Shown: positions 14,562 to 53,896 of the stretch, piece by piece | Layout: each line of letters opens with the position of its first letter | How positions within the stretch are numbered: the first letter of the stretch is position 1 | NCBI GenBank assembly: GCA_964452555.1 | Contig: CAYVMI010000018.1 | Location: 32,329 to 96,328, forward strand | Length of the DNA: 64,000 nt | Source of the DNA: an uncultured Desulfobacterales bacterium | GTDB lineage: Bacteria; Desulfobacterota; Desulfobacteria; Desulfobacterales; B30-G6 | Direction of reading: 5' to 3' | The notes under the pieces: generated by a model | The model's database searches: none | The model's input: only the letters and a program-made list of their open reading frames with translations | What the model was told of the DNA's origin: nothing | Translations under genes and position numbers: made by a program

Positions 14562-15527
14562 TTAGAGCTCTTCGATCGCTTCCGTCAACTCCGGCAGAAA
14601 ATCGAGGATGTCGGCTTCGATGCCCACATCCGCCACCTGAAAAATAGGGGCCTTGGGATTTTTATTGATGGCCACGATAAAGGGATTGCCTTTGATCCCG
14701 CCCAAATGCTGGAAGGAGCCGCTGATCCCGCAGGCCAGGTAAACCTTGGGCTTGACCGTCTGGCCGCTCGTACCCACCTGCCGTGATTTTTCCAGCCATT
14801 TGGCGTCTACGATGGGACGCGAACAGCTCACTACGGCACCCATGGCCTTGGCCAGGTCTTCGGCGATTTCAATATTGTCTTCGTCTTCGATGCCGCGACC
14901 AATGGATACCAGCACATCCTCTTTGGTAATATCCACGTCACCTACTTCTGCCACCACGGTTTCAAGGTAGGTCCGCTTGGTGGACAAATCACCGGCTTCC
15001 CCGGATTTATCTACCACCTGGCCGGAAGCGCTTTTGCTTTCATCCGGTTGAAATGCCCCGGGCCTTACATTGACAACGGCTCCGGCGGCAATATCACAGG
15101 TTACATGGGTGCTGACCGCACCGCCATATTCCTGGCGCACGCATTTGAGAACCGAACCGTCCATGCCCTCAAATCCGACCACATCGGCCACAAAAGCCGA
15201 GTCCATTTTAATGGAAAGACCCGGTGCCAGATCCATACCAAAAGTATCGTGGGGCACCAAAAGCGTGCCATCGGCAGGCAATATGTTTAGTAAAACATTG
15301 CGGATGATTTCAGCATTGGGGTATGCCAGGGCCTCGTTTTCCACCTTCCAAACCTCGGCATAAGATGCCGCCAGATCATTGCAGAGCGCTTCGATCCCCG
15401 AACCCACGACTATGGCTGTGGGCGCTGCACCGGCATCGAGCTGTTTGGCCGCAGTTACCAGCTCCAGAGCTGAATCATCAGGGACCCCGTCCTTATACGT
15501 AATATAACTAAAAATCTGTCCTGACAT
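14562..15527 (-). CDS. etfA: Electron transfer flavoprotein alpha subunit
   Basis: 321 aa; C-terminal FAD-binding signature ...YLACGISGSFQHLGG... Confidence 0.95.
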   Translation of the reverse strand: MSGQIFSYITYKDGVPDDSALELVTAAKQLDAGAAPTAIVVGSGIEALCNDLAASYAEVWKVENEALAYPNAEIIRNVLLNILPADGTLLVPHDTFGMDLAPGLSIKMDSAFVADVVGFEGMDGSVLKCVRQEYGGAVSTHVTCDIAAGAVVNVRPGAFQPDESKSASGQVVDKSGEAGDLSTKRTYLETVVAEVGDVDITKEDVLVSIGRGIEDEDNIEIAEDLAKAMGAVVSCSRPIVDAKWLEKSRQVGTSGQTVKPKVYLACGISGSFQHLGGIKGNPFIVAINKNPKAPIFQVADVGIEADILDFLPELTEAIEEL

Positions 15528-16318
15528 TATTTGAGCCCTCCTTTGGCCTTGAGTAGTTCAATCAGTTTCTCAACGATCTCTTCGGTACTGCCTTCCAGCA
15601 TCTCAGCACCTTCTCCCAGCTCCGGAACGAAATAGTCCAACCGTTTGACACCGGCACCGGCGGCGCCGACGGCCTCGGCCGCCAGCCCCAGGTCTCCGGG
15701 ACCATGCACTGGGATATCAATGGATGCAACCTTGCGGATGCCGCGGATACCGACATAGCGCGGTTCGTTGATACCGGTCTGGATGGAAAGTACGCAAGGC
15801 AAAGTTATTTCACTCATTTCCTGGTTGCCGCCTTCGATTTCCCGCCCAATCTTAAGCTTTTTGTCATCAACGACCTCTATGGCGTTGACCAGCGATGCAT
15901 AGGGCACATCCAACATGGCCGCCAGCATGCCACCCACCTGACCGGCACCGTCGTCAGCCTGGGCTCCGGTCAAAATCAGGTCGTAATTACCTTTTTCCAC
16001 AGCGGCCTTCAGGATGGATGCAATGCCTTTACCATCGGAGTCTTCAAAGGCATCATCGGAAAGCAGCAGGCCGTTGTCGGCACCCATAGCCATTTCGCGC
16101 CGGACCACCTCTTCGGATTCCTCATCACCCACCGAAACCACGGTGACGCTGCCGCCTTTGTCATCCCGGATCTGGATGGCTTCCTCTACGGCATAATTGT
16201 CCCATTCATTGACCGAATATACCAGATCATCAGTTTCAATCCCGCTGCCGTCGCTGTTGACCTCGATTTCATTCTCTGCTGTATCCGGTACTCTTTTGAC
16301 ACATACCAAGATTTCCAT
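15527..16318 (-). CDS. etfB: Electron transfer flavoprotein beta subunit
   Basis: MEILVCVKRVPD... typical EtfB N-terminus; TAATG junction with etfA. Confidence 0.95.
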   Translation of the reverse strand: MEILVCVKRVPDTAENEIEVNSDGSGIETDDLVYSVNEWDNYAVEEAIQIRDDKGGSVTVVSVGDEESEEVVRREMAMGADNGLLLSDDAFEDSDGKGIASILKAAVEKGNYDLILTGAQADDGAGQVGGMLAAMLDVPYASLVNAIEVVDDKKLKIGREIEGGNQEMSEITLPCVLSIQTGINEPRYVGIRGIRKVASIDIPVHGPGDLGLAAEAVGAAGAGVKRLDYFVPELGEGAEMLEGSTEEIVEKLIELLKAKGGLK

Positions 16319-16390
16319 GTCCTACCTCCCATGATTTAATGTAGTTCTTTTTCTATTTGGAAGTCATATTTTTAACCGATCATATACCCA

Positions 16391-16543
16391 CTAAGGGTTC
16401 CAGGAGTCAAGGATCCAAGGGGTCGAGTGAACAAACAAATCGCTGTGAGCTTTTTGCTTTAAGCTGCAAGATAAGGAGCCAAGAGCTAAAAACGAAGAGC
16501 TTATCACTTGAATCCTCGGCTCCTTGAATCCTCGAATCCTTAG
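16391..16543. repeat. Word-tile inverted arms in the etfB / FeS-oxidoreductase spacer
   Basis: ctaagggttccaggagtcaaggatccaagg (16391..) versus cttgaatcctcggctccttgaatcctcgaatccttag (..16543); both arms end in ctaagg/ccttag. Confidence 0.75.
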
Positions 16544-16556
16544 ACCATCAGATCCT

Positions 16557-18659
16557 TTACTCAGCCGCATCTCGGGGGCTTGATTGATTGCTGCCAATAT
16601 GTTGGGCCACCAGTTCGACCAGATCAATGGCTTCCATTTTACCTTCCATGCCGGCAACCTTAATGGCATCTTCCATATTGACCAAACAGAATGGACAGGC
16701 CGTAACAATTACATCGGCACCGGCCTCGGCCGCCATTTCCACCCGTAAAACCCCCATGCGCTGTTCTTCCTCGGGCTCATAAAAAAGCATCAGCCCGCCA
16801 CCCCCACAGCAAAACGACCGATCACGACACTTAAGCATATCGACCCGTTTTAACCCCGGAATGGCATCCAATACTTCTCGGGGCTCGTCATAGAGACCGT
16901 TGTGCCGCCCCAGATAGCAGGGATCATGATAGGTGTAAACCTTGCCGTTGCTGCCGTTCGCCGCCAGCTTTAGATCGCCCGACTTTATCTTTTCCAGGAT
17001 AAGTTGGCTGATATGCTCAACCGGTGGCATCTCATCATAATCGTTTTTGAGCGCGTTGAAGGCATGCGGATCAGCCGTAATGATTTTTTCAACGCCACTG
17101 TTTAAAATCGCGTCTGTATTTTTGTCGCGCAAGTCTTGAAACAGCATTTCCTCGCCGAAACGGCGAACTTCATGACCGCTGTCCTTTTCAGCCTTGCCCA
17201 GGATGCCGAAATCCTCGCCGGCAGCGGACATCACCCTGGCGGTGGCGCGGCCGATATCCTGCATGCGGTCGTCATAAGAAGTGATGCTGTCCACAAAATA
17301 GAGGGTCGCTGCCGACTCTTTTTTACCCAGGACTTTAACCGGGCTATCTTCAGCCAGTTCCTTGGTCCAGTCCACACGTTTTTTCTCCATCTTGCCCCAG
17401 GGATTGCCGCGTTTTTCCAGCGCGCGCAGCGGTTTTTGCAGCGACTGCGGCACCGCGCCTTCATCCACCATCCCCCGGCGCAGATCCACAACCTTGTCGA
17501 TGTATTCGATCCCCAAAGGACATTCCTGCTCACAGGCACCACAGGTTGTGCAGGACCAGATCTCATCATCGTCATACACACTTTCCATCAGCGGCTTACT
17601 TTCCGGAGGAGCGGCTCCCAAAGGATAGATGGGATGGCTTTCAAACAACGCATCACGACCTTTGATGGAGATAAAGCGGGGAGACAAGGGTCGTTTGACC
17701 GCGTTGGCCGGACATTGGTCCGAGCAGCGGCCGCAATCGGCGCAGGAATAAAAATCCAGCATGTGCTTCCAGGTAAATTCGGTAAGATTTTTAACCCCAA
17801 ACGACTCCAGGTCGTCCAGTTGTTCGTCGCTGATACCATGTCGGACCGGCTTGACATTGCCCCGGTCAATCCGCATGAAAAACACATTAAATACAGACGT
17901 GATCACATGAAAATGCTTGCCCAGCGGCAAAAAACACATGAAGAAGAAGAAGGTGATATCATGAATGTAATACATGCCCAGATGGGTCGCCTGAAGACCG
18001 TTTATGGATGCCCCTCCCAGCAATAGCTTGAAAAACCAGGCTAAACTCAGGGGTGCGATCACCTCGGCATGCAGGCCTTTTTGGATCTGGGCGGCTGCAG
18101 TGCTGGCTTCAAACAAACCCTCCGAGATCATGAGCGTGGAAATCAGGCAGAGGACAAACACGGCTTCACCGGTATGGTCTTTACCATAGCGCTCCGGCAC
18201 GGCATAACGTGCCGGTTTGATGATACCCCTGCGTATCATGGCAATGATGCATGCCACCAGCACGGCGGTAGCGGCGTAATCTTTGAGCAAACTATAGACC
18301 ACCCCCAGGCCGCCCCCCAAACCGGGAAAAACAAAATCCGATGAGATGCCGATGATCACCAAGGAAGTGGACCGGATACCCAATATTAGAAAGCCGAAGA
18401 AAATGACAATGTGCAGAACGCCGGCCAGCATGTAGCGCGGCTGTCTCCATTGCAGCAGCCAAATTTTAATCAGCTTGCCGAACCTTTCACCAAAACGGTT
18501 CCAGCGCGGATCCGGTGCCGCCTTGAGCAAGGGAATAATGCGCATGGCCATGATATACGCAAAGACCACCACACCAATTAGGGGAATTAACCATGAAAAA
18601 GTTACTGTCGCAATCCCGATGAAAGATGCATCCGCCGGGGGAATCAACACAGTTTCCAT
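16557..18659 (-). CDS. Membrane-bound FeS oxidoreductase (N-terminal multi-TM domain + 2x[4Fe-4S] + two CCG domains; HdrD/DsrK/GlpC-like, candidate ETF:quinone oxidoreductase)
   Basis: 700 aa; CADCGRCSDQCP and CTTCGACEQECP ferredoxin motifs; FCCGGGG and VTACPFC CCG-domain motifs; sits next to etfBA and an acyl-CoA dehydrogenase. Confidence 0.85.
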   Translation of the reverse strand: METVLIPPADASFIGIATVTFSWLIPLIGVVVFAYIMAMRIIPLLKAAPDPRWNRFGERFGKLIKIWLLQWRQPRYMLAGVLHIVIFFGFLILGIRSTSLVIIGISSDFVFPGLGGGLGVVYSLLKDYAATAVLVACIIAMIRRGIIKPARYAVPERYGKDHTGEAVFVLCLISTLMISEGLFEASTAAAQIQKGLHAEVIAPLSLAWFFKLLLGGASINGLQATHLGMYYIHDITFFFFMCFLPLGKHFHVITSVFNVFFMRIDRGNVKPVRHGISDEQLDDLESFGVKNLTEFTWKHMLDFYSCADCGRCSDQCPANAVKRPLSPRFISIKGRDALFESHPIYPLGAAPPESKPLMESVYDDDEIWSCTTCGACEQECPLGIEYIDKVVDLRRGMVDEGAVPQSLQKPLRALEKRGNPWGKMEKKRVDWTKELAEDSPVKVLGKKESAATLYFVDSITSYDDRMQDIGRATARVMSAAGEDFGILGKAEKDSGHEVRRFGEEMLFQDLRDKNTDAILNSGVEKIITADPHAFNALKNDYDEMPPVEHISQLILEKIKSGDLKLAANGSNGKVYTYHDPCYLGRHNGLYDEPREVLDAIPGLKRVDMLKCRDRSFCCGGGGLMLFYEPEEEQRMGVLRVEMAAEAGADVIVTACPFCLVNMEDAIKVAGMEGKMEAIDLVELVAQHIGSNQSSPRDAAE

Positions 18660-18841
18660 TAATTTTTTTCCTTCATTGCATTGAACGATGATTCATTTGT
18701 AGCTATATTGTAACCAAACCGTCGATATCATAAAAGCATCAACCGGGCAAGTCCCCATAAAAAACTGCGCCAAGTTCAGCTTTCTATTGAAAATTGCCGA
18801 ATTATACTTTTAAGATCCGGTCTACAGCTGCAAGTTACAGT

Positions 18842-18969
18842 GGCCTGATGTGGGCAATTGTCGAGGTTGCCGTAGCTACAAGGAAGATGCTGTTTCGCTA
18901 TAGTGTACTATGCGGGATGGCATCTGACGCAGTAGATGCGGTAAGATCGGCAATCCCGTAGGGTTTCAG
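18842..18969 (+). repeat. Rod-like structured repeat, copy 2
   Basis: About 14 mismatches over roughly 113 nt relative to copy 1 (aligned by eye); same orientation. Confidence 0.8.
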
Positions 18970-19054
18970 ATTTTAAGAAATTAAATGATTAGAATCCTAA
19001 TTGTTATATAATTTCTATCGATTATTCTTAAAATCTGAAATGCTCCCATTAGGC

Positions 19055-20878
19055 TTATTTTCCGCCGAAACTATCCTCCCCAATCTGGGTAATGGCATCG
19101 CTGCTGTTTAGAATGGCGTTCATTTTTCCCATGCTGACGGGCAGTATCGACTGCATAAAAAATTGGGCGCTTTTAATTTGTCCTTCATAAAAAGCCCGGT
19201 CTTTTTTCTTGGCGCCGGCTTCGAGCAGTTCGGCTGCAATGGATGCCCGCCATAGAAGCATCCAGGCCATAACGGCATCGCCCATGACCTCCATAAAAGG
19301 ATAGGCATGGGCAAAGGCATCCATGACTTTATCCGACATGGCTGTTTTGCCCAAATGCATGGCGACCTCGCCCAGCTTGTTGACGGCTTCGGTAAGCTTG
19401 TCCGCCAGGCCGGCCAACGACGGCACGGCTTTGGCCCTGGCGATGGCAGCCTGGACCTCACCCAGCAGGTCCATTATCGGCCGGCCTTCGTTCATCCCCA
19501 ATTTACGGCCCAGCAGATCCATTGCCTGGATCCCGTTGGTGCCCTCGTAAATCATGGTAATGCGGCAGTCCCGGACGAGTTGCTCCTGAGGATACTCCTT
19601 AATATAACCATAGCCGCCGTAAACCTGCATACCCATGTTGCAGACATCATAGGCGCGATCAGAGACATAGCCCTTGGCAATCGGTATCAGAATATCTACG
19701 AGGCCCTTCAATTTTTCTATTTCAGCATCGTCATCGGAAATTTCGACGCGATCGTCGCACAAGGCCACATAATAGAGCAAACTGCGCATGCCTTCCACAT
19801 AAGCTTTCATGGTCAACAGTTGACGGCGCACATCGGGGTGTTGAATAATGGGGATGGATTTGGCTTCTTTTTCCCCGCTCATAACGGCTTGCAGGTTTTT
19901 TCCCTGTATTCGTTCCCGTGCATAGTTGATGGCATTGACATAGGACGCACTGGCGCAGCTCAGGCCCTGCATCCCCACCAGCAGGCGGGCTTCGTTCATC
20001 ATCAGAAACATGGCTCGCATGCCTTTATTTTCTTCTCCCAACAAAAACCCGCGGCAGCTGTCCTTGCCGCCCAATGTCAACGAACAGGTCGAGTTGCCGT
20101 GGATACCCATCTTTTCTTCAACGCCCGTGCAAACCACGTCGTTGGCATCGCCCAGGCTGCCGTCTGCATTGACCCATATTTTGGGGACCAGAAACAGTGA
20201 TATCCCTTTGGTTCCTTCGGGCGCGCCCTCGATTCGCGCCAGTACCGGGTGAATGATGTTTTCGGCCAAATCGTGCTCCCCGGAGCTGATAAAAATTTTG
20301 CTGCCGCTAATACTATAGGTACCATCATCATTCTTGACCGCAGTCGTAGTCAAAGCGCCCACATCCGATCCGGCCTCGGGCTCGGTCAGCAGCATGGTCC
20401 CGGTCCATTCACCGCTGTACATCTTCTTCAAAAACAGTTTTTTGAGCTCGTCGGTTCCAAAGGCTTCCACCAGTTTACCGGCGCCGTGTGTCAGTCCCGG
20501 ATACATCATAAAGGCATAGTTGGCGGCGTTGAAATAATCACTCGCCGCAAGTGCCACCGTACGGGGCATCCCCTGGCCACCCCATTCAGGATCTTCGGTC
20601 ATGGCCAGCCATTCCCCCTCTTTAAAAAGGTCCCAGGCCGAGTGAAACTCTTTGGGGACGGTGACCTGGCCGTTTTCAAAACGGGTGCCTTCCCTATCGC
20701 CGATTTCCCGCGTGGGCAGGATCTCCTTGATAGCCAGATTGCGCGCTTCGGATATAATCAAATCCACTGTTTTGCGGTTAAATTCCGCGAACGATTCATG
20801 TTTGCTGATATCGGCCACATCCAGCTGCTCATGCAGCACGAAATCCACATCTCTTCGATCTGCGAGTTGTTGTGCCAT
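19055..20878 (-). CDS. Long acyl-CoA dehydrogenase (with C-terminal extension domain)
   Basis: 607 aa; ...YEGTNGIQAMDLLGRK... ACAD signature. Confidence 0.95.
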   Translation of the reverse strand: MAQQLADRRDVDFVLHEQLDVADISKHESFAEFNRKTVDLIISEARNLAIKEILPTREIGDREGTRFENGQVTVPKEFHSAWDLFKEGEWLAMTEDPEWGGQGMPRTVALAASDYFNAANYAFMMYPGLTHGAGKLVEAFGTDELKKLFLKKMYSGEWTGTMLLTEPEAGSDVGALTTTAVKNDDGTYSISGSKIFISSGEHDLAENIIHPVLARIEGAPEGTKGISLFLVPKIWVNADGSLGDANDVVCTGVEEKMGIHGNSTCSLTLGGKDSCRGFLLGEENKGMRAMFLMMNEARLLVGMQGLSCASASYVNAINYARERIQGKNLQAVMSGEKEAKSIPIIQHPDVRRQLLTMKAYVEGMRSLLYYVALCDDRVEISDDDAEIEKLKGLVDILIPIAKGYVSDRAYDVCNMGMQVYGGYGYIKEYPQEQLVRDCRITMIYEGTNGIQAMDLLGRKLGMNEGRPIMDLLGEVQAAIARAKAVPSLAGLADKLTEAVNKLGEVAMHLGKTAMSDKVMDAFAHAYPFMEVMGDAVMAWMLLWRASIAAELLEAGAKKKDRAFYEGQIKSAQFFMQSILPVSMGKMNAILNSSDAITQIGEDSFGGK

Positions 20879-24680: not shown

Positions 24681-24709
24681 TTGACAAGCCGCAGTCCGGC
24701 ATATACAAA
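24681..24709 (+). promoter_or_regulatory. Candidate sigma70 promoter for the hdr/met operon
   Basis: TTGACA-17 nt-TACAAA; weak -10. Confidence 0.35.
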
Positions 24710-24734
24710 TCTCCTTTGGTTTGCGAAGCTGATT

Positions 24735-24771
24735 TGCAAACGTTTGCGCTGCTGGGATGCAAACGTTTGCG
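24735..24771. promoter_or_regulatory. Two identical 14-mers TGCAAACGTTTGCG (12-bp perfect palindrome core), 23 bp apart; candidate LacI/PurR-type operators
   Basis: Cores at 24736..24747 and 24759..24770; extra half sites gtttgcg at 24719..24725 and ttgcaaac at 24780..24787. Confidence 0.6.
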
Positions 24772-24819
24772 GTCCCGAATTGCAAACCGAGAACAGGACT
24801 ACAACCAGGAGAATTAATT

Positions 24820-27800
24820 ATGCCAAAAGACGTTATCGGAGCGACGATGGTGGTCGGCGGTGGAATCGCAGGGATGCAATCAGCCCTGGATTTGGCCGAA
24901 TCCGGCTATTATGTATATCTGGTGGAAAAGTCACCGGCAATCGGCGGACTCATGTCCCAGCTGGATAAGACCTTTCCCACCAATGACTGTGCCATGTGAG
25001 TCATTTCACCCAAACTGGTCGAGGTCGGCCGGCATCTCAACATTGAACTGCTCACCAATACGGAACTCGTCAATCTGGAAGGAGAACCGGGCAATTTTTC
25101 GGCAAAGGTTCATCAGACACCCCGCTACATCGATCTGGATAAATGTACCAGCTGCGGTGAATGTGCCAAAGTTTGCCCCATTACCCGCCCCAATGAATAT
25201 GACCAGGGCCTCTCAACACGTCAGGCGGCCTTCAAAAAATACGCCCAGGCCATACCGGGTGCTTTTGGAATTGAAAAACGGGGCACAGCCCCGTGTAAGG
25301 CCACCTGCCCTGCGCATGTCAGTATCCAGGGCTACATCGCCTTGATCAACCAGGGCAAATATCAGGAAGCGCTGGAACTATTCAAAAAAGACCACCCTTT
25401 TCCGGGAATTTGCGGCCGCGTCTGTCATCACCCCTGTGAAGAAATCTGTACGCGCAATGATGTAGACCAGCCCCTGGCCATACGGGAACTGCATCGCTTT
25501 TTGGCTGATTATGAAAGACAACAGGGTGAATTCTATGTCCCCGAAGTCACCGAAACCCGTGAAGAAAAAGTAGCCGTCATCGGCTCCGGCCCGGCTGGTT
25601 TAGCAGCCGCTTATAGCCTGGCCCTTCAGGGTTATCAGGTCACGGTGTTTGAAAAATTGCCGGTGGCCGGTGGTATGATGTCCGTGGGCATTCCCGAATA
25701 TCGACTGCCCAGAGATATCATTGCCGAAGAAATTCGCGTGATTGAAAAAATGGGCGTGACCATCCAGACCGGCGTCACCTTTGGTGAAGACATTACCCTG
25801 GACAGTCTCAAACAGGATGGCTTTTCAGCTGTATTTATGGCCATCGGCCTGCATGGCGGCCGTAATCTGGGTGTTGAAAATGAAGATGCCGAAGGCGTTC
25901 TCCAGGGGGTTGATTTCCTGCGTGACAGTGCCATGGGCAAAGATGTGCCCATCGGTGAAGACGTACTGGTTGTCGGCGGCGGCAATGTGGCCATCGACGT
26001 GGCCCTCACAGCTAAACGCAAGGGCTCCAAAAACGTCACCCTGATCTGCCTGGAAGCCCGGGACGAAATGCCGGCCTGGCAGCACGAAATCGAAGAAGCC
26101 CTCGAAGGCGACATTGAGATTGTCAACAGCTTTGGCCCTAAGTCATTCTTCATTGACAAAAGCAACAAGGTCTCGGGGATTGAATTTAAAACCTGTACGG
26201 CCGTATTTGACGATGAGGGACGCTTTAATCCCCGGTATGACGACAATGTGTGTCAGCCCTTCTTTGGCGACACCGTCATTATCGCCATTGGTCAGAGCGC
26301 CCAACTCGAGCACATCGAGTCCCAGGGAATTCCGGTCACCCCCAGGGGCGGCCTGGAAGCCGATCCGCTTACGTTGCAAACCAAACTGGACTGGGTCTTT
26401 GCCGGCGGCGATGCCTTCTACGGTCCCAAATCGGTTGTGGACGCCGTTGCTTGCGGCAAGGAAGCCGCCGAGTCCATTCATCGTTTCATAAACGGCCAGG
26501 ATCTGGCCGCTGATCGGGAGCAAAACTGGGAATTTGATAAACCCGATATTGAAAACGAACCACACATGGATCGCACCACGGTACGCTGCCTGGATCCCGA
26601 AGCGCGTGAGTGTAACTTTTTGGAAGTCTCTTTTGGCTATAATGAAGATGAAGCCAAAACCGAAGCCCAGCGCTGCCTGGAATGCGGTATCTGTTCGGAA
26701 TGTTACCAGTGCGTCGAGGCCTGCCTGGCCGAAGCCGTGGATCATGACCAGAAACCCATGGACCGTGAGATCAAGGTGGGTTCCGTGGTCCTGTCTTCGG
26801 GGACGGATCTGTATGATCCCAGCGACCTGGCCCAGTTCTATCATTACGGCATCAATCCCAACGTCATGACCAGCCTCGAATTTGAACGCATCTTGAGCGC
26901 CTCCGGCCCGACCATGGGGCATCTGGTGCGGCCGTCCGACGAAAAAGAACCCCAGAAAATTGCCTGGCTCCAGTGCGTTGGTTCCCGCGACACCAACCGG
27001 TGCGGCAACGGCTACTGCAGCAGTGTCTGCTGTATGTACACCATCAAGGATGCCATGATCGCCAAGGAGCATTCCGGCGGCGATCTCGACTGCGCCGTGT
27101 TTTACATGGACATCCGTTCCTTTGGCAAAGATTACGAACAGTATTACGACCGCGCCCGCGACAAAGAAGGTGTTCGTTTTGTAAAAGCTCGCGTGCACAC
27201 CATCGCCGATGATCCCGAGACCCGCGATTTGATCATCTCTTTTGCGGACGAATCCGGGCAGATGCAGACCGAACGTTTCGACATGTTGGTTCTGTCCGTG
27301 GGCCTGCAGGTTTCTCAGGCGTCGGTCGATCTGGCCAAAACACTCGATATCGATCTGAACCATTACAACTTCGTGGACACCGATCCGTTTGCTCCGGTGG
27401 CCACCTCCCGTCCGGGTGTTTATACCTGCGGCATCTTTCAGGGCCCCAAGGACATCCCCTCTTCGGTTACCGAGGCCAGTGCGGCGGCCAGTGCCGCCGG
27501 CGTGGAAGTGGCCGCGGCCCGGGGAACGGCCATTAAGAAAATCACCCTGCCCGCAGAATTGGATGTGAGTGAGGCGGATCCGCGCATCGGTGTGTTTGTC
27601 TGCAACTGCGGCATCAATATCGGTGGCGTGGTGGATGTGCCTGCGGTGCAGGAATATGCCGGCACCCTCCCCGGTGTGGTTTATACCGACAACAACCTCT
27701 TCACCTGCAGCCAGGATACCCAGGAAATTATCAAGGAAAAAATCAAGGAAGAAAAATTGAACCGGGTGGTGGTTGCGTCCTGCAGTCCCAAAACCCACGC

Positions 27801-29253
27801 CCCCATGTTCATGGAAACCCTTGAAGCCTGCGGCCTGAACAAGTACCTGTTTGAAATGGCCAATATCCGCAACCAAAACTCATGGGTGCATGCCAATAAT
27901 CCGGATATCGCCACCCAAAAGGCCAAAGACCTGGTTCGCATGGCAGTGGCGCGGTCGGAACGATTGAGACCCCTCAAGGAAAAAATAATTGGGGTCAACA
28001 AGCGCGCCCTGATAATTGGCGGCGGAATCGCCGGCATGAATGCGGCTCTGCATATCAGTAAGCAAGGTATGCCGGTGACGCTGCTGGAAAAGAACAAAGA
28101 GCTGGGCGGCATGGCTAATAAACTTCACCATACCATCGAGGGAGCCGACATCCAGGCCTATATCAAGGAATTGATCGAAAAAGTCAGCGCACGTGAGGAA
28201 ATCGAAATCCTGACCGATGCGGTGGTCCTGACTTTTGACGGATTCCAGGGCAACTTTGCCACCGAAGTGGGTGTGGGGCCCATGCGTGAACCCCAGGTTA
28301 TCGAACATGGCGTCATTCTGGTAGCCACAGGGGCCAATGAATATCAGCCCACGGAATTTCTGTATGGCCAGGACGACCGTGTCAAGACCCAGGTGGAGCT
28401 GGCCGATGCCCTGCACCAGGGCTCCACCGGAGATCTGGATTGCGTGGCCATGATCCAATGCGTAGGATCGCGCAACGAAGATAATCCCAACTGCTCTCGC
28501 ATCTGCTGCCAATCGGCGGTTAAAAATGCCCTGACCATCAAGAAAGCCAACCCCGAAACACAGGTTTTCGTACTCTATCGGGATATGCGCACCTACGGCC
28601 TTTTGGAGGATTACTATACCGAAGCGCGCAAACAAGGCGTTATCTTCGTACGCTTTGACAAGACCGAACCTCCGGTTGTTGAGTCTGCTGACGAGGGTCT
28701 GCTGATCACGGTAAAGGATCATGTATTGCAGCAGCCGATCCAGATCCGTGCCGACCTTCTGGCCCTGAGCGCCGGGGTTGCGGCCGCGGACACCGAGGAT
28801 ATGAGCCGCATCATGAAGCTCAACCGCAATCCCGAGGGCTTTTTTATTGAAGCCCACGTCAAACTCAGACCGGTGGATATGGGCAGCGACGGCACCTTCC
28901 TGTGCGGTACCGCCCATGCCCCCAAGCTAATTACCGAAACCATCGCCCAGGCTCAGGCGGCGGCTTCACGCGCCATGACTTTCCTGGCCAAGGATGAAAT
29001 CAAGCTTTCGGCCATAACAGCCCAGGTGGATGTGGAACACTGTGTGAAATGTCTCACCTGCGTGCGGTCGTGTCCCTTTGAGGTACCCAAGTTTGATATC
29101 GAAAAAGGCGAAATCGTAATCGACGAGGCCATGTGCCACGGCTGCGGTGTTTGCGCCTCGGTTTGTCCCAGACAGACCATCAGTTTAAATTTTTATGAAG
29201 ACGACCAGATTATCTGTAAAATAGATGCTCTGCTTGCAGGAGGCGTTTCATGA
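24820..29253 (+). CDS. Giant HdrA-like flavoprotein (HdrL-type: two HdrA modules + inserted GltD/NfnB-like NAD(P)H module + ferredoxin domains), selenoprotein with UGA-Sec at 24997..24999
   Basis: Track ORFs 24757..24999 and 25342..29253 are in the same frame with no other stop between them. Sequence reads ...[18 protein letters not shown]... where HdrA has CxxC. ATG 24820 has AGGAGA upstream. [19 protein letters not shown] and [10 protein letters not shown] dinucleotide folds; CVGSRD/CVGSRN HdrA motifs. Confidence 0.85.
25021..25038 (+). promoter_or_regulatory. Weak candidate SECIS hairpin for the HdrL UGA
   Basis: gaggu(c)-ggccg-(g)caucuc, 21 nt after UGA; imperfect. Confidence 0.3.
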
Positions 29254-29672
29254 CCGACTTTGAACCGACCATTATCGCATTTTGCTGTGATTACTGAGGA
29301 TATTCGGCCGCGGACCTGGCAGGTTCCATGCGACTCGATTATCCGGCAAACATCAAGATTATCCGTGTGCCCTGCACCGGAAAAGTAGACGTAATGTATC
29401 TCCTCAGATCGATCCAAAAAGGCGCCGACGGCGTGTATGTGGTCGGCTGTCTGGAGGGGACTTGTCATTATAAGGAAGGCAACTTCAGGGCCCGCGAGCG
29501 GGTCAATTATGTGCGCTCGCTCCTGGAGGAAATAGGCCTTGAAGCTGATAGGGTTAGAATGTATAATCTCTCTTCTGGCGAAGGGCCGACGTTTGCGGCT
29601 TATGCCAGGGAAATGACGGAAAATATCAAGGCGCTGGGTCCCAATCCCATCAAGGAAAAGGACCAAGCCTAA
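29250..29672 (+). CDS. mvhD: MvhD/VhuD-like protein, selenoprotein with UGA-Sec at 29295..29297
   Basis: ATG 29250 overlaps the HdrL stop (ATGA). [25 protein letters not shown] matches the FCCNWC motif with Sec at the third Cys. Same frame as track ORF 29328..29672. Confidence 0.85.
29312..29327 (+). promoter_or_regulatory. Candidate SECIS hairpin for the mvhD UGA
   Basis: ggacc-uggca-gg(u)ucc with bulged U, 14 nt after UGA. Confidence 0.45.
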
Positions 29673-29687
29673 AACGGAGGAACAATT

Positions 29688-31007
29688 ATGGCTCAAGAAG
29701 CAATCAAGTTGGGCGGGAAAAAGAAAAGCATTTTCCTGGACAAAGTTAAAGAGCTTCTCCCCGAAGGGGGAAACCTCAATCTTTGTCTGACATGTGGAGC
29801 ATGCTCTTCCGGATGCCCGGCCACAGGTATCGGCGGAATGGATCCCCGAAAATTCCTACGCATGGCCGCACTGGGAATGGATGAAGAAATCATGAAATCG
29901 GAATGGGTATGGTGGTGCAGCATGTGTCAGCGCTGCATTTATGTGTGCCCCATGAAAATCGACATACCCCAGCTGGTTTTTAATGCCCGCGGATCATGGC
30001 CCCGGGAAGAACGACCCAAGGGAATTGTCGGTTCCTGTGACATGGCCCTGCGCAACGACACCTGCAGCGCCATGGGTGCCACCGAAGAGGACTTTCAGTT
30101 CGTGGTGGAAGATGTGCTCGAGGAATATCAGGAAAGTCAACCCGAATTCGCCGACATGCTAGCCCCCGTCAACAAAGAGGGTGCTCATTATTTCCTGAAC
30201 CAGAATTCACGTGAACCGGTTACCGAACCGGACGAAATGGTGCCGCTCTGGAAAATTCTGCACCTGGCGGGTGCCGACTGGACCTATGGAACCAAGGGTT
30301 GGGCCGCCGAGAACTATTGCATGTTCATGGCCGATACCAAAAACTGGGAACACATTGTGCGGGTAAAAGCCAAAGCCGTCGACGATCTAGGCTGCAAGGT
30401 CTGGCTCAACACCGAGTGAGGGCACGAACTTTTCGCAGTCCGGGCCGGACTGAAAAAATTCAATATCGAACATAATTTCGAAATCCAGAGTATCATTCAG
30501 CTTTATGCCCAGTGGGTCCGCGAGGGCAAACTCAAGGTCAACTCCGATTGGAACAAGGAACGCCAGATCAAGTTCACCGTCCAGGACCCCTGTCAATTGG
30601 TGCGTAAAACCTATGGCGACCCGGTTGCCGATGACCTGCGATACGTGGTCAAGGCGGTTGGGGGGGAAGAAAACTTCGTAGAAATGTATCCCAACCGCTC
30701 CAACAACTATTGTTGCGGCGGCGGCGGCGGATTCCTGCAAAGCGGATATCCGGAAGAACGGCGGGCCTATGGCAAGTGCAAGGCCGACCAGATCCTGGGC
30801 ACAGGGGCCGCTTACTGCATTACCCCGTGCCATAACTGCCACGCCCAGGTTCACGATCTATCAGAGCAGCGCGACCATCCGTGGGAAACCCTGCATCTGT
30901 GGACATTGATCTGTCTGTCTCTGGGTATACTGGGCCCCAATGAAAGGGCTTACCTGGGGGATGATCTCAAAGATGTCGACGTATTTCATCCTGAATCGGA
31001 GATGTAG
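29688..31007 (+). CDS. HdrD-like FeS protein (2x[4Fe-4S] + two CCG domains), selenoprotein with UGA-Sec at 30417..30419
   Basis: Track ORFs 29688..30419 and 30597..31007 share a frame, and the 177 nt between them has no stop. CLTCGACSSGCP and CSMCQRCIYVCP motifs, then ...KVWLNTE-U-GHELF..., then DPCQ...NYCCGGGGG...TPCHNCH. Confidence 0.8.
30431..30458 (+). promoter_or_regulatory. Candidate SECIS hairpin for the HdrD-like UGA
   Basis: cagtccg-ggc-cggactg perfect 7-bp stem (30436..30452), extended by tttt/aaaa; starts 17 nt after UGA. Confidence 0.6.
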
Positions 31008-31015
31008 GAGGAAAC

Positions 31016-31687
31016 ATGATAGTCGCCAAAAGGAAACCTTTTGATGAAATAAAAGAGCTGATCAAGGACCACAAAAAGGTCCTCATCGCCGGCTGCGGCA
31101 CCTGTGTGGCTGTCTGCCTGGCTGGCGGTGAAAAAGAAGTCGATGTCCTCAATGCAGAGCTCGACATGGCTCGGAAGCTGGACAACGATCCCATCAAGAC
31201 CGGCACCATCACTGTGGAAAGACAGTGCGATGTGGAATACCTGGAACCTTTTGATCCCATCGCCAAGGATTATGATGCCATCTTATCCATGGCCTGCGGG
31301 GTTGGTATTCAGTTTTTGGCCGAACGCTTTCCCGGAATTCCGGTCTATCCGGCGGTAGACACCACCGGCATGTCGGCCAACCTGGCTGTGGGCTGGTACG
31401 AAGAACGCTGCCGCTCCTGCGGTGAATGTGTTCTGGGAATGACCGGCGGCATATGCCCCGTCACCATGTGTGCCAAGGGACTTTACAACGGTCCCTGTGG
31501 TGGTACCAATGAGGGGAATTGTGAAATCAGCGACGATCAACCCTGTGCCTGGTTCCGAATCTACGAACGCCTGGCCACCCAAGATCGTCTGGACTGTATT
31601 CTGAATATCAAGGAGCCCGTGGGCTGGGACGACCAGGTACCGCGAACTTTGATTCAACCAGGATATAAAAAGCCAGAACAAGATTAA
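31016..31687 (+). CDS. metV: MetV-type methylenetetrahydrofolate reductase C-terminal-domain protein (Cys-rich small subunit)
   Basis: 223 aa; LIAGCGTCVAVC ... CRSCGECVL ... CPVTMCAKGLYNGPCGG; immediately upstream of metF. Confidence 0.8.
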   Translation: MIVAKRKPFDEIKELIKDHKKVLIAGCGTCVAVCLAGGEKEVDVLNAELDMARKLDNDPIKTGTITVERQCDVEYLEPFDPIAKDYDAILSMACGVGIQFLAERFPGIPVYPAVDTTGMSANLAVGWYEERCRSCGECVLGMTGGICPVTMCAKGLYNGPCGGTNEGNCEISDDQPCAWFRIYERLATQDRLDCILNIKEPVGWDDQVPRTLIQPGYKKPEQD

Positions 31688-31735
31688 CAGGTCTCATGGA
31701 GTGAATGACCTCATATACGACATAAGGTGATGCAT

Positions 31736-32680
31736 ATGAGCACAGAGGGAAACGGTTTTAAGTCAGATAGCAACTTGGAAAAGATTTTGCGGGCCGGTCA
31801 TTTCGCCTTTACCGGCGAACTCGGTCCCCCCCGAGGATCCGATGCGGTTGAGGTTCGTGAAAAAGCCAAGCATTTAAAGGGTATGGTAGATGCGGTTAAC
31901 ATCACCGACAACCAGACCGCCATGGTGCGTATGTCCAGCTGGGCCGCCAGTCTTTTGATCATGCAGGAAGGTCTCGAACCCAATTATCAGATGGTCTGCC
32001 GTGACCGCAATCGCTTGGCCATGCAGTCCGATATCTTAGGCGCTTACGCCCACGGCGTTCGCAACATGCTGTGTCTTTCCGGTGATCATCAAAAATTCGG
32101 TGATCATCCCAACGCCAAAGGCGTTTTCGATATTGATTCGATCCAACTCATCAGTATGGTCAAAAAAATGCGGGATGAGAGTAAATTTTTGGGCGGGGCC
32201 GAGTTGGAAGGCGCCCCTAAAATGTTTATTGGCGCAGCCGCAAACCCCTTTGCCGATCCGTTTGAATGGCGTGTTCACCGTTTGGCTAAAAAAATTCAAG
32301 CCGGTGTTGATTTTATCCAGACCCAGTGTATTTACAACATGGATAAATTTCGCAAGTTCATCAAACAGGCCAACGACATGGGACTAACCGAAAAGGTGTA
32401 CATCCTGGCCGGTGTCACCCCCATGAAGAGTGTCGGTATGGCCAAGTACATGAAGAGCAAGGTGCCCGGTATGGACGTCCCCGATGACATTATCAAGCGC
32501 CTCCAAGGCGCGGAAAAAGGTAAAGTTGCGGCCGAGGGTATCAAGATCGCCTGCGAGCAGATCGAAGAGTTTAAAGAAATGCAAGGCGTTGCCGGCGTCC
32601 ATCTAATGGCAATTGAATGGGAACATAAAGTCCCGGAAATCGCAGAACAGGCTAAGGTGCTGCCTCGCCCAGAGGTATAA
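31736..32680 (+). CDS. metF: Methylenetetrahydrofolate reductase
   Basis: ...FTGELGPPRG...VNITDNQ...LCLSGDH... MTHFR motifs; ATG 31736 preferred (AAGGTG 6 nt upstream) over track start 31727. Confidence 0.9.
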   Translation: MSTEGNGFKSDSNLEKILRAGHFAFTGELGPPRGSDAVEVREKAKHLKGMVDAVNITDNQTAMVRMSSWAASLLIMQEGLEPNYQMVCRDRNRLAMQSDILGAYAHGVRNMLCLSGDHQKFGDHPNAKGVFDIDSIQLISMVKKMRDESKFLGGAELEGAPKMFIGAAANPFADPFEWRVHRLAKKIQAGVDFIQTQCIYNMDKFRKFIKQANDMGLTEKVYILAGVTPMKSVGMAKYMKSKVPGMDVPDDIIKRLQGAEKGKVAAEGIKIACEQIEEFKEMQGVAGVHLMAIEWEHKVPEIAEQAKVLPRPEV

Positions 32681-33627: not shown

Positions 33628-36399
33628 CTACGCCGCTTTCGAAATTCGGACCGCACAAACCTTGAGTTCGGGGATTCCGGAAACCGGATCCAGAGCAGCG
33701 TTGGTTAGTTTGTTGGCAGCTGCCTGGGCATAATGAAAAGGAATGAAAATCGTGCCCGGCACTGCCTGGTCAGAAACTTTAACGGCGGCCTCAAGATCTC
33801 CACGACGAGATTCTACTTTTACCATGGCGCCATCTTCCAGTTCATAGTTACGCGCGTCCTCAGACGATATTTCCACGTAACAAGCCGGAGCGCGCTCATT
33901 CAAGCCATCTGATTTCATGGTCATGGTGCCGGTATGGTAGTGATACAGGATCCGGCCGGTGGTCAGGGACAGCGGATAATCCGCGTCGATCTTTTCAGCG
34001 GGACCGTTGTAATCAATGGGATGCATGAGGCCTTTGCCGCGGGTGAACTGCTCTCTATGTAGAATCGGTGTCCCGGGGTGGTCTTTGCTGGGACAAGGCC
34101 AGTGCAGCCCCACCGCTTCGATGCGCTCATAATCGATCCCGGCATATGACGGGGTAACCGCGGCCAGTTCCTGCATAATGTCCTGGCTGGTATCGTAGGA
34201 CATGGCCACCCCCATACGCGTGGCTATCTCAGCCGTAATTTCCCAATCATCCTTGGCCTGGCCGGGAGCATCCACGGCTTTGCGTATACGCTGAACGCGC
34301 CGTTCACTGTTGGTGAAGGTACCTTCCTTTTCGGCAAAACATTTGGAGGGCAGTACCACATCCGCCAGTTGAGCCGTCTCGGTCATGAAAATATCCTGCA
34401 CCACCAAAAAGTCGAGATTTGTGAAACATTTTTCGGCATGATTCAAATCCGCATCCGACACCATCGGATTTTCACCCAGGATATACAAACCTTTGAATTC
34501 GCCGTCATGCGCTTTGGGCAGCATTTTGGTAATCGTCAATCCAGGCTCCGTGGAAATCCCGCTCACGCCCCAGGCGGTCTCCATTTTTTTGGCGGCTTCT
34601 AAGTCGGTCACCGGCTGGTAGCCGGAAAATACATTGGGAAGTCCGCCCATGTCGCAGGCGCCCTGGACGTTGTTTTGACCCCGTAAAGGATTGACACCGC
34701 CCCCTTCCACACCCATGTGACCGCAAAGCATGGCCAGATTGGCCAATGATTTCACATTATCGGTGCCATTGGTATGCTGGGTAATTCCCATGCAATAACA
34801 GATGCTGCCGGCCTTGGCCTGGGCATACGCTCTGGCAGCCTCGGCCAACTGCGCCTGGGGAATGCCCGTAATCTCTTCCACATAAGCCGGTGTATACTCG
34901 GCCACTGTTTTTCTGAGATCTTCGAATCCCTCGGTCCGTTTCTCAACAAAGTCCTGGTCATACAGGGCTTCATTGATGATGACATTCATCATGCCGTTGA
35001 TCCAGGCCACATCGGTACCCAGATTTTGACGCAACCAATAATGGGCAAATGAAGCCATCTTGATAAAACGCGGATCCACGACGATAAGCTTGGCACCATT
35101 GAAGCTGACCGCCCGTTTGATAAACGATGAAAGCACCGGATGGTTTTCGGTGGTATTGGATCCGGTAACCAAGATTACATCGGCCTTCTCGATTTCGCCA
35201 ATGGTATTTGTCATGGCGCCACTTCCGAATGCTGCAGCCAGACCGGCTACGGTGGAGGAATGTCAGAGCCGGGCGCAATGATCGATATTGTTGGTTTTTA
35301 ATACTCCCCGGGCAAATTTGTTGGCCAAGTAATTTTCTTCATTGGAAATCCGAGCCGAGGTGAGCACCCCCAGGCTGTCTGAGCCGTGGGATTCTTTGAT
35401 TTCACTGAATCGCTTGGCAACCAAATCCAGGGCTTCATCCCAGGTAGCCTTGCGAAAGCTGCCGTTCTCTTTGATCATGGGGTCGGTCAGTCGCTCGGGT
35501 GAATGAATAAAGTCGTATCCGAAGCGGCCTTTGACGCAGAGGCTGCCGTAGTTGGGTGCGGCCCCCTCCACACCGCTGACCTTGACCACCCGGTTGTCTT
35601 TGACATGCAGATAAAGCTGGCAGCCCACACCGCAATAGGAGCAGGTTGTACGGACCTTCTCGGTTTCCCATTGGCGTACCTGATAGCGGGCATCCTTTTC
35701 CACCAGCGCTCCCACAGGGCAAACCTGCACACATTCGCCACAAAATACACAATCCGAATCCTTGAGGGCCTTGTCCTCTTTACCCGCAATAATTTTGGAC
35801 TGGTTACCGCTATACCCGAACTCAATGGCATTGTTCACCTGGACTTCGTTACACGCCTGAACGCAGCGGCCGCATTTGATACAACGAGAGAAATCCCGGA
35901 TGATAAACGGATTGGCCGTTTCCATTGGATAAGGTGCCTGCGCATCTGCGAAGCGTTTCGGTTCCACCTGGTAACGGTAAGCCAAGTCCTGCAGACGGCA
36001 GTCCCCCCAGACCGGGCACAATTCCGAGCTGTCATCGTACTGCTGAACGTTCATCTGAAACTGGGACCAGTCATCGCTGCTGGTGCCCCGGATGGCGCAG
36101 TTGTGGTTCCCGGTGGACAGCATGAGCTGAATGATGGCCCGGCGCGCGGAAACGACGCGCGCTGATTCCGTCTGGACAATCATACCAGCCTCTGCCAAGG
36201 TGTCACAGGACGGTAGCAGGTCCTCTACACCCTCGACTTCAACCACACATATACGGCAGTTGCCTGTGGGCGCAGCGCCTTTCAGATAGCAAAGGGTGGG
36301 AATATCGATGCTGTTTCGTCTGGCCACGGCCAAGATGGTTTCATCTTTTTCAAAAGCCAAAGAGTTTCCGTTGATGATGATGTTCGGCTGATCACTCAT
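33628..36399 (-). CDS. fdhA: Formate dehydrogenase catalytic subunit with NuoG-like N-terminal [2Fe-2S]/[4Fe-4S] domains; selenoprotein with UGA-Sec at 35263..35265
   Basis: Track ORFs 35263..36420 and 33628..35214 are in frame. Junction reads [29 protein letters not shown], the canonical FdhA Sec site. Start either ATG 36420 or ATG 36399 (GAGGAAG 7 nt upstream). Confidence 0.9.
35234..35250 (-). promoter_or_regulatory. SECIS hairpin of fdhA
   Basis: On the mRNA: GUAGCC-GGUCU-GGCUGC, 12 nt after UGA. The loop GGUCU resembles my recollection of the E. coli fdhF SECIS apex (UGCA-GGUCU-GCA). Confidence 0.75.
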
Positions 36400-36742
36400 A
36401 TACGCTTCCTCTACATTCATTGGTTCCTAGATTCGGGTTATTAACTGAAATTTTTCAGCTGATACAACTCAGGATATGTATCCAAAAGCAATGCTTTTGT
36501 CAATGATGCGCGATACAAAACAAACGGTTGACGTTTTTGTATATCAAGAATTTTATCTTTGTCAAAAATATGTCTTCCTCGCGCGGGAATAAATGTAATG
36601 TCATACCGACAATACTTAACGTTTTCGGACATTTAACTAAAGTTTTATCATAAATTTGCCGATACCATTACGACGGGTATTTGTGGAATAGTCATTGCGT
36701 CCTGTTGCAGGTTGCGTTATAATAATTGTTGTCTCTGATTCG

Positions 36743-52882: not shown

Positions 52883-53896
52883 TCAATCTCTAAATAGTTC
52901 TAAATACGCTCCATAGCCTTCCTTTTCCAAATCTTCCTTGGGAATAAATCGAAGCGCAGCCGAATTGATACAGTAACGCTGCCCGGTTGGTGCGGGGCCA
53001 TCCGGAAAGACATGACCCAGGTGAGAATCACCATGGCGGCTGCGTACTTCCGTACGAACGGTGAAGAGCTTGCAGTCTTCTTTCTCAACCAGATATTGGC
53101 GATCCAGGGGACGTGTAAAACTGGGCCAACCCGTACCGGAGTCAAACTTGTCTGTGGAGCTAAAGAGCGGTTCACCCGAAGCCACATCCACATAGATGCC
53201 TTCCCGTTTATTATCCCAGTATGCGTTCCGAAAAGGGGGTTCGGTGGCGTCCTGACGGATCACCTGATACTGATCCTCAGTCAAACGTTCACGTAACTCG
53301 TCCTCTGACGGCCGCTTGTATTTAGATTCTTCCGGCGAATCAGGCCGGCCCGTTTTGCTTACCTGCCAAATGGCCTGCAAAAATTGGTCGCGGCCGGAAC
53401 CCTGGCGGTAACGGGCATAGTGCGCTGGGTTCTTATGATAATAGTTTTGATGGTAATCCTCGGCAGCATAAAATGTCGAAAATGGCACAATTTCGGTTGC
53501 AATGGGCTTAGCATACACATCCGATTCTTCCAGATCTTGTCGCGATTTTTCAGCTATCTTCTGCTGTTCTTCAGAATGTGTAAAAATCACAGTTCGGTAC
53601 TGGGGCCCGCGGTCTACAAATTGCCCGTCGGCATCAGTGGGATCCACTGAGCGCCAGAATGCATCCAATAAGTCTTTATAAGTCACCTGGCGGGAGTCAT
53701 ATTGGACTTGAATTGCTTCCACATGACCGGAAATACCGCTGGCCACATCCTGATAGGTCGGATCCGGCATGCGTCCACCGGTGTAACCTGAGGTCACTGA
53801 TTGAACACCCTTGATTTTCTTAAAATCCGCCTCAATACACCAGAAACAGCCGCCAGCAAAGGTTGCCACTTCCATTTGTCCGGTATTAATTGCCAT
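52883..53896 (-). CDS. msrAB: Bifunctional methionine sulfoxide reductase MsrA-MsrB fusion
   Basis: GGCFWC (MsrA) and GWPSF ... RYCINS (MsrB). Confidence 0.9.

Follow-up and report, generated by a model that had tools for sequence, protein, structure and literature searches.

The stretch of DNA analysed here, hereafter the window, comprises 64,000 nucleotides (nt) from an uncultured Desulfobacterales bacterium of sulfate-reducer type (contig CAYVMI010000018.1 of assembly GCA_964452555.1), and all coordinates given below are window positions. A TGA codon at 24997-24999 lies in frame within one gene of this window, hdrL, and almost certainly encodes selenocysteine (Sec, or U in protein strings) in a single flavoprotein that fuses HdrA and NfnB modules. 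There is very little doubt that the product is a Sec-containing HdrL, the name given to an HdrA fused to a GltD-type NAD(P)H-binding module, which is the arrangement found here. Taken as a whole, the best explanation of the locus, and a highly probable one, is one HdrL of 1477 residues with UGA decoded as Sec, built as a fusion of two modules and with a function linked to the MetV and MetF proteins (MetVF) encoded downstream.

The gene runs in a single frame from an ATG at 24820 to the stop TGA at 29251-29253, and the only TGA in between is codon 60. The frame holds 1478 codons including the stop, which gives 1477 residues when the recoded one is counted. An earlier reading of the DNA made without database searches, the sequence-only reading, had joined the open reading frames (ORFs) 24757..24999 and 25342..29253 into one 1477-residue Sec-containing HdrL-type protein, on the grounds that they share a frame broken by this TGA alone. 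Both the shared frame and the peptide TFPTNDCAM-[TGA]-VISPKLVE around the codon were confirmed, and the interpretation is supported by alignments, by homologues with Cys or Sec, by a downstream hairpin and by truncated database entries. As start codon, the ATG at 24820 is preferred over 24757, since a homologue with Cys at codon 60 (P0054) has the same length of 1477 residues and the tblastn matches begin at residues 1-7. The 59 residues preceding the TGA correspond to the GGGIAG FAD-binding fold of HdrA, and the alignment to solved HdrA chains runs on past the codon (query residues 10-153 match 147-290 of 5ODC_A, E ~1e-49). In this alignment the TGA falls on Cys197 of 5ODC_A and on the equivalent Cys of the HdrA of 8RVU, which bears out the earlier claim that the flanks match the HdrA segment where a Cys normally sits. 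The same residue is Sec197 in the HdrA of Methanococcus maripaludis (PMC13518236).

A tblastn scan of genomes gave at least 545 confirmed relatives, and the locus counts reported here refer to the best 80 of these, all from uncultured Desulfobacterota-type assemblies. At the aligned position, 53 of the 80 loci have TGA (54 sequences counting the window) and 24 have TGC or TGT, so that the Cys-type and Sec-type homologues with which the sequence-only reading proposed to compare the protein both exist. A gene boundary at this point, which that reading had named as grounds for abandoning it, was looked for and seen in none of the 80 loci. On either side of the TGA, and in one and the same frame, the 53 related TGA-type sequences vary at the third codon position and keep the first two unchanged. 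Moreover, in a neighbour-joining tree of 69 full-length HdrL proteins (46 with Sec and 23 with Cys), the two states are structured by clade and require a minimum of two changes, which indicates that the TGA is old and has been maintained. The public databases present a different picture of the family, since 119 of the 120 best database homologues (70-95% identity) are truncated at the N terminus, as had been forecast, and most of them begin exactly at the codon after the TGA. The only full-length homologue among these 120 is P0054, a Cys form that reads NDCAMCVISPK, and the cluster listing of the homologues gives generic names alone, such as 'FAD-dependent oxidoreductase'.

Codon 60 thus combines what is expected of a selenoprotein gene, namely an in-frame UGA with coding sequence on both sides, Cys (TGC or TGT) in homologues and a hairpin downstream. 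This hairpin, which resembles a selenocysteine insertion sequence (SECIS), begins 15 nt after the UGA, with its AGGU loop starting at 22 nt, and falls inside the interval 25000-25060 named beforehand as the place to search. As a SECIS it was judged by the numeric spacing limits that bSECISearch applies. In 53 distinct TGA-type sequences, the codons from +19 to +36 (CTG GTC GAG GTC GGC CGG) show zero entropy at all 18 positions, six synonymous sites included, as opposed to 0.4-1.9 bits at the third positions of variable flanking codons. Those six third positions reach 0.8-1.9 bits in 18 Cys-type sequences, where Val is replaced by Ala or Cys, and the hairpin is not formed in three of four Cys-type controls, the fourth (L031) retaining a shorter version. 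Selection of this kind at the RNA level, confined in these alignments to the TGA-type genes, is what a bacterial SECIS would be expected to leave behind. Some Cys-type hdrL genes (L051, L031, L053 and L080) hold near-copies of the element at about +19 to +36 after their TGC, for instance CTGGTCGAGGCCGGCCGT in L051, and these copies look like remnants of a Sec-to-Cys conversion.

A systematic scan of the window for pairs of ORFs joined by a TGA returned four sites only, in hdrL and in three further redox genes within 11 kb: mvhD, an hdrD-like gene and a canonical fdhA. All of them lie at Cys positions of known selenoprotein families, and each of the three additional genes has a hairpin with a G in its loop 15-19 nt downstream of the TGA. 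In mvhD, the codon is TGA in 40 of the 59 related loci where the site was detected, followed by the invariant GCGGACCTGGCAGGTTC, and TGC or TGT in the other 19. The states of HdrL and MvhD are mostly, though not always, matched, with 35 U/U and 16 C/C loci against 5 C/U and 4 U/C. The hdrD-like codon is TGA in 10 related loci and TGC in 3; its hairpin varies slightly among the TGA loci (C/U in the loop, A/G in the stem), and public calls break the gene into a 136-residue CCG fragment (L081). The fdhA gene is likewise called as two ORFs, of 385 and 528 residues, and the presence of this canonical Sec gene within the window argues that the organism decodes Sec. Other candidate TGA codons, at 40251(-), 18695(-) and 62706(-), were discarded as belonging to overlapping or non-coding frames. 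An MsrA-MsrB fusion (PMSR and SelR domains, 52883-53896 on the minus strand) is an uninterrupted ORF, and hence a Cys form in an organism that uses Sec.

Two HdrA modules that complement each other are fused in HdrL. Pfam recognises in it three dinucleotide-binding regions, a GltD-type Fer4_20 domain (residues 156-236) and a C-terminal 2x[4Fe-4S] domain. In the comparison with solved structures, methanogen HdrA is matched as four blocks in permuted order, which include, besides the N-terminal block cited above, query 618-842 with HdrA 292-508 and query 920-1073 with HdrA 3-156. Residues 156-632 (query 157-632) match instead the NfnB/GltD-type chains 9BOV_A, 8OH5_C, 4YLF_B and 5JCA_L, with E values of 1e-64 to 1e-110. 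Alignment of the two HdrL halves to the HdrA of M. thermolithotrophicus with MAFFT resolved both modules. Module 1 (residues 1-155 and 618-915) carries the FPTxDCxxC and QCVGSRD...C...CC motifs of an HdrA FAD domain and lacks the N-terminal and C-terminal ferredoxin domains of HdrA; module 2 (residues 916-1477) supplies the N-terminal cluster and C-terminal ferredoxin domains and lacks the FPTNDCxxC/U motif. The inserted ferredoxin domain of module 1 is itself interrupted by the NfnB-like module (residues 156-617). All parts listed in the sequence-only reading, that is, an HdrA module, a GltD/NfnB-like module, a second HdrA module and a C-terminal 2x[4Fe-4S] domain, are therefore present, but the NAD(P)H module is inserted within the first HdrA module and does not follow it. 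Since its domains are divided between two modules, the protein departs from canonical HdrA, in which the N-terminal, thioredoxin-reductase-like, inserted ferredoxin and C-terminal ferredoxin domains make up one module of ~650 residues. When the Cys-type homologue P0054 was scored in place of the window protein, the NCBIfam models HdrA2 (930, cut-off 1100), HdrA (727, cut-off 1400) and hdrA_Methbact (683, cut-off 1300) stayed below their cut-offs, and the only model that passed was the generic NF009410, 'NAD(P)-binding protein'.

As to function, the genes hdrL, mvhD, hdrD-like, metV and metF follow each other in this order between 24820 and 32680, and fdhA lies just beyond on the opposite strand. 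The association is widespread: of 63 related loci with enough downstream sequence, ~51 have hdrL-mvhD-metV-metF, 6 have mvhD only and 6 neither, with mvhD directly downstream of hdrL in ~57. The locus thus shows the mvhD neighbour that accompanies HdrL and all components of a Hdr-type methylenetetrahydrofolate reductase cluster (metV, metF, mvhD, HdrC/B-type proteins and a large HdrA), the HdrC and HdrB parts being fused in the HdrD-like protein. On the basis of this gene context and of the complex known from Moorella, HdrL together with Sec-containing MvhD, the Sec-containing HdrD-like protein and MetVF most likely forms, by analogy, a Hdr-type NAD(P)H-linked methylene-/methyl-tetrahydrofolate (THF) oxidoreductase belonging to the Wood-Ljungdahl pathway, where HdrL would most likely be the NAD(P)H-binding large subunit. 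By the same analogy, the enzyme is possibly electron-bifurcating or confurcating. The link to MetVF, considered on its own, is regarded as fairly probable.

Part of the comparative evidence weighs against this assignment. The closest relatives after L001 (L002, L005, L008, L009 and L013) have hdrL with neither mvhD nor metVF downstream, and Syntrophobacter-type loci carry mvhD without metVF, which means that HdrL is not exclusively tied to MetVF. In this line, the Sec-containing HdrL could be real and have another partner, acting as a bifurcating, NAD(P)H-linked module of general use whose electrons pass by way of MvhD and the HdrD-like protein to some other acceptor, for example DsrC/sulfite reduction or an unknown disulfide. 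Such a role would agree with these relatives, with the order in Desulfobacterium autotrophicum, where HdrL1-MvhD is followed by dsrABC (PMC2702500), and with Syntrophobacter fumaroxidans, in which HdrABC/HdrL is made only with sulfate and has been linked to DsrC. Nevertheless, metV and metF come directly after hdrL-mvhD in most of the related loci counted above and also here, with the hdrD-like gene between, a Moorella protein of the same architecture co-purifies with MetFV (PMC5861303, PMC9430772), and the Sec-containing fdhA, another enzyme of the methyl branch, adjoins. A partner other than MetVF consequently carries a small but real chance, and coupling to DsrC and sulfite is possible for the HdrL family and less likely at this locus.

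Some further features of the related loci were recorded. The metagenome-assembled genome closest to the window (CAZWEO01) has two paralogous Sec-hdrL clusters, one ordered hdrL-mvhD-hdrD-metVF (L001) and the other hdrL-mvhD-metVF...hdrD (L050), and hdrL is followed in L002 by genes for an OsmC-like protein and a pyruvate kinase. A contig search with MetF gave no match, and the one with MetV only short Logan contigs, which are uninformative on the organism or its Sec machinery.

Returning to the decoding of codon 60, several observations count against Sec. Pfam scans found no SelA, SelB or SelD among 40 proteins of the 64-kb window, in which ARAGORN found no tRNA or tRNA-Sec either. The folding energy of the hdrL hairpin is indistinguishable from that of shuffled sequence (z = -0.5 to -0.7), and in single-sequence folding energy none of the four regions that follow a TGA differs significantly from shuffles; conservation at the nucleotide level was used for the SECIS because thermodynamics alone cannot support it. 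Moreover, an invariant hairpin offers no compensatory covariation, and Rfam at gathering thresholds gave no match in the whole window. Reading of the UGA as Cys or Trp, through near-cognate or suppressor decoding, would suit the lack of Sec machinery genes within these 64 kb and the fact that Cys functions at this position in related proteins. It is nonetheless very unlikely, as it leaves unexplained the hairpin conserved in nucleotides at SECIS distance only in TGA-type genes, and it has to face four TGA sites that all fall on Cys positions of selenoprotein families, the canonical fdhA among them. TGA also terminates 6 of the 35 Pfam-supported genes of the window, hdrL included, and because it is an ordinary stop here the recoding must be specific to site or context. 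Relatives such as D. autotrophicum, in addition, possess the full Sec machinery and an annotated Sec-HdrL (PMC2702500). That the TGA is a true stop, leaving two genes (a 59-residue peptide and a re-initiated protein), a pseudogene or a sequencing error, is extremely improbable: gene callers, most database entries and the mechanical ORF list do divide the gene there, but the same TGA recurs in 53 independent assemblies with coding-type substitutions on both sides in one frame, Cys-type homologues are uninterrupted, the first 59 residues hold an indispensable Rossmann FAD motif, and the next codon, GTC, is no start codon, the following candidate start (TTG at 25342) being one that would remove the FAD fold and the first ferredoxin motif.

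With Sec at codon 60 as the preferred reading, a sequence of events can be proposed from the established SelB/SECIS mechanism of bacteria. SelB-GTP-Sec-tRNA(Sec) would bind the hairpin and deliver Sec at the UGA, without termination. The possible role of the residue follows from the HdrA structures, in which the N-terminal domain of one protomer has a [4Fe-4S] cluster whose fourth ligand, Cys197, comes from the other protomer, and from fused or tandem HdrAs, where Cys197 and the N-terminal domain are present in a complementary manner (Chadwick et al., PMC9012536). In HdrL this complementarity is found within one chain, for which reason Sec60 of module 1 would be located at, or would ligate, the N-terminal-domain cluster of module 2 in cis, between the FAD and the clusters of the ferredoxin side. 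Weighing against the explanation as a whole are that this position next to the module-2 cluster of the same chain is a placement from homology and that the Glu of the E/K 'bifurcating flavin' signature is shifted by two residues in module 2 in the MAFFT alignment. A 2026 structure from M. maripaludis shows a Cys-Sec feature between cluster A3 and the FAD instead, whose role its authors leave undecided (PMC13518236). Under either chemistry, as judged by analogy, residue 60 is on the presumed route between the flavin and the ferredoxin-side clusters, and the NfnB-like insert would be the entry point for electrons from NAD(P)H. Only tentatively can all of this be combined into one scheme, in which the module-2 cluster would have Sec60 as a selenolate ligand (or Cys-Sec redox partner), HdrL would be a covalent asymmetric 'HdrA heterodimer', and the triple-selenoprotein HdrL-MvhD-HdrD-MetVF assembly would serve Wood-Ljungdahl Desulfobacterota as their methyl-/methylene-THF oxidoreductase, linked to NAD(P)H and ferredoxin and bifurcating or confurcating electrons.

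The nearest counterparts of the window protein are known from D. autotrophicum HRM2, where HdrL was defined in 2009 and where HdrL1, HdrL3, several MvhD and HdrD4 are Sec proteins (Strittmatter et al., PMC2702500). Likened by published description and not by sequence (PMC2702500), HdrL1 and HdrL3 share with the window HdrL the large HdrA/GltD-type fusion, the NAD(P)H site, the Sec and an mvhD gene directly downstream, often with Sec itself. Both hosts also have Sec-containing HdrD paralogues nearby and belong to the complete oxidisers among the Desulfobacterales, and the difference lies in what follows: dsrABC after HdrL1 in HRM2, and hdrD-metV-metF (after mvhD) in the window. HdrL was called unique to HRM2 in that work (PMC2702500), as opposed to the at least 545 genome relatives reported here.

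A second counterpart is the MetFV-HdrABC-MvhD complex of Moorella thermoacetica, whose HdrA (162.8 kDa, 1487 residues) oxidises NADH and for which a second electron acceptor is still being sought (PMC9430772, PMC5861303). Compared by published description, this HdrA is in the same length class as the window HdrL (PMC9430772), and the two proteins share the domain order, the first module of each carrying a GltD insert and the inserted ferredoxin being absent from the second (PMC9430772); mvhD, metV and metF are found in both neighbourhoods. A listing of selenoproteins credits Moorella with one Sec-HdrA and one Sec-FrhD/MvhD (PMC1794560), and this Sec-HdrA may or may not be the one linked to MetFV. 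HdrC and HdrB are separate in Moorella and fused in the window as the Sec-containing HdrD-like protein, and the gene order changes from hdrCBA-mvhD-metVF to hdrL-mvhD-hdrD-metVF. Unlike Moorella, the host of the window belongs to the Desulfobacterota, in which the enzyme may run oxidatively.

Methanogen HdrA (M. thermolithotrophicus 5ODC, M. wolfeii and the M. maripaludis super-assembly) has in common with module 1 of HdrL the FPTNDCxxC/U motif, the FAD domain (E ~1e-49 per segment), the Sec position and the E/K signature, and cluster motifs are also common to both proteins. The methanogen enzyme is a homodimer of 650-residue chains with hydrogenase and the heterodisulfide CoM-S-S-CoB as partners, whereas HdrL joins two non-identical modules and an NfnB-like insert in one chain and would have MetVF as its partner. 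Residues 156-632 of HdrL match, along their whole length, the small-subunit type of NfnB/GltD (4YLF_B and 5JCA_L; Stn-family 8OH5_C and 9BOV_A), including both N-terminal [4Fe-4S] motifs as well as the Rossmann motifs for FAD and NAD(P)H, but this module is a separate subunit in those systems and an insertion inside the HdrA ferredoxin domain in the window.

Table 1. Features of the hdrL region, with window positions and the evidence or detail for each.
Feature	Positions	Strand	Evidence or detail
Ribosome-binding site AGGAG	24807..24811	+	8 nt 5' of the ATG; direct sequence reading
hdrL coding sequence	24820..29253	+	1477 residues, Sec predicted at residue 60; frame, Pfam, PDB matches, homologues
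In-frame TGA, predicted Sec codon U60	24997..24999	+	equivalent to methanogen HdrA Cys197/Sec197
SECIS-like hairpin CUGGUCG-AGGU-CGGCCGG	25015..25032	+	7-bp stem, 4-nt loop with G; folding and conservation
HdrA module 1, first part (residues 1-155)	24820..25284	+	FAD Rossmann GGGIAG 13-18, FPTNDCAMU, first half of inserted ferredoxin domain (motif 109-120)
GltD/NfnB-like insert (residues 156-617)	25285..26670	+	Fer4_20 Cys motifs, FAD site, NAD(P)H site; PF14691, PF07992; 9bov_A, 8oh5_C, 4ylf_B, 5jca_L
HdrA module 1, second part (residues 618-915)	26671..27564	+	second half of inserted ferredoxin, rest of thioredoxin-reductase-like domain, QCVGSRD...CSSVCC, E (LEFER)/K (MYTIKD)
HdrA module 2, N-terminal (MvhD-like) [4Fe-4S] domain (residues 916-1064)	27565..28011	+	Cys in VCNCG (927-931), FTCS (961-964), ASCSP (986-990)
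HdrA module 2, thioredoxin-reductase-like FAD domain (residues 1065-1400)	28012..29019	+	without FPTNDCxxC and inserted ferredoxin; keeps QCVGSRNE...CSRICC
C-terminal 2x[4Fe-4S] ferredoxin domain (residues 1401-1477)	29020..29250	+	Fer4 families 1401-1455; query 1325-1471 = HdrA 501-649
mvhD (FlpD family), 140 residues	29250..29672	+	ATGA overlap with hdrL stop; in-frame TGA 29295-29297 (FCCDY-U-GYSA)
hdrD-like gene, 439 residues	29688..31007	+	HdrC-type dicluster and HdrB-type CCG domain; TGA 30417-30419 (WLNTE-U-GHELF); hairpin CAGUCCG-GGC-CGGACUG
metV (methylene-THF reductase C-terminal-type zinc/FeS protein)	31016..31687	+	PF12225
metF (methylenetetrahydrofolate reductase)	31727..32680	+	PF02219, synteny
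fdhA-type formate dehydrogenase alpha subunit	33628..36420	-	canonical Sec site NIDHCARL-U-HSSTV, TGA 35263-35265; hairpin GUAGCC-GGUCU-GGCUGC

The region upstream of hdrL is rich in repeats. A 23-nt tandem repeat of ~3 copies (24719-24787), in which the palindrome TGCAAACGTTTGC occurs twice (24735-24747 and 24758-24770), sits between the start of hdrL and a conserved promoter-like block (TTGACA-N17-TATACA, ~24681-24709). At least 5 copies of this repeat occur in locus L001, which is 94% identical, and the palindrome is absent within 400 nt upstream at the other 75 hdrL sites checked; an operator array is one possible reading, a variable repeat another. The lysK-hdrL intergenic segment 24297-24598, most of which is missing from L001, is dense in short tandem repeats: ATCGCTATCGGG x2.3, CGATAC x8.7 and GTTTTAA x3.9, the last of these recurring downstream as its reverse complement (CCTAAAA x7). 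Further upstream, 14562-20878 on the minus strand encodes EtfA, EtfB, a 700-residue membrane protein with dicluster and CCG domains, and a long acyl-CoA dehydrogenase, which make up a beta-oxidation electron-transfer cluster. The membrane protein is of the HdrF/DsrK-like type described beside etfBA in D. autotrophicum.

The sequence-only reading treated HdrA as an established selenoprotein family, in agreement with the catalogue of 2006 that lists HdrA, FrhD/MvhD and GlpC-type Fe-S oxidoreductases among the bacterial selenoprotein families (PMC1794560). Sec-containing HdrL is accordingly a selenoprotein family described since 2006-2009, and nothing here is conceptually new. What is added is that the HdrL family is widespread and not confined to HRM2, that the Sec form predominates among the closest relatives, that the SECIS is invariant across a deep clade, and that public annotations are nearly always truncated. 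With 119 of the 120 best database entries deprived of the N-terminus that binds FAD, this bears on what is inferred about domains and metabolism in many Desulfobacterota genomes. Moreover, three consecutive subunits of the window (HdrL, MvhD and the HdrD-like protein) use Sec, beside MetVF and a Sec-containing formate dehydrogenase. If the tentative scheme for Sec60 and the HdrL-MvhD-HdrD-MetVF assembly were true, it would also identify the second electron acceptor that has long been sought for Hdr-type methylene-THF reductases.

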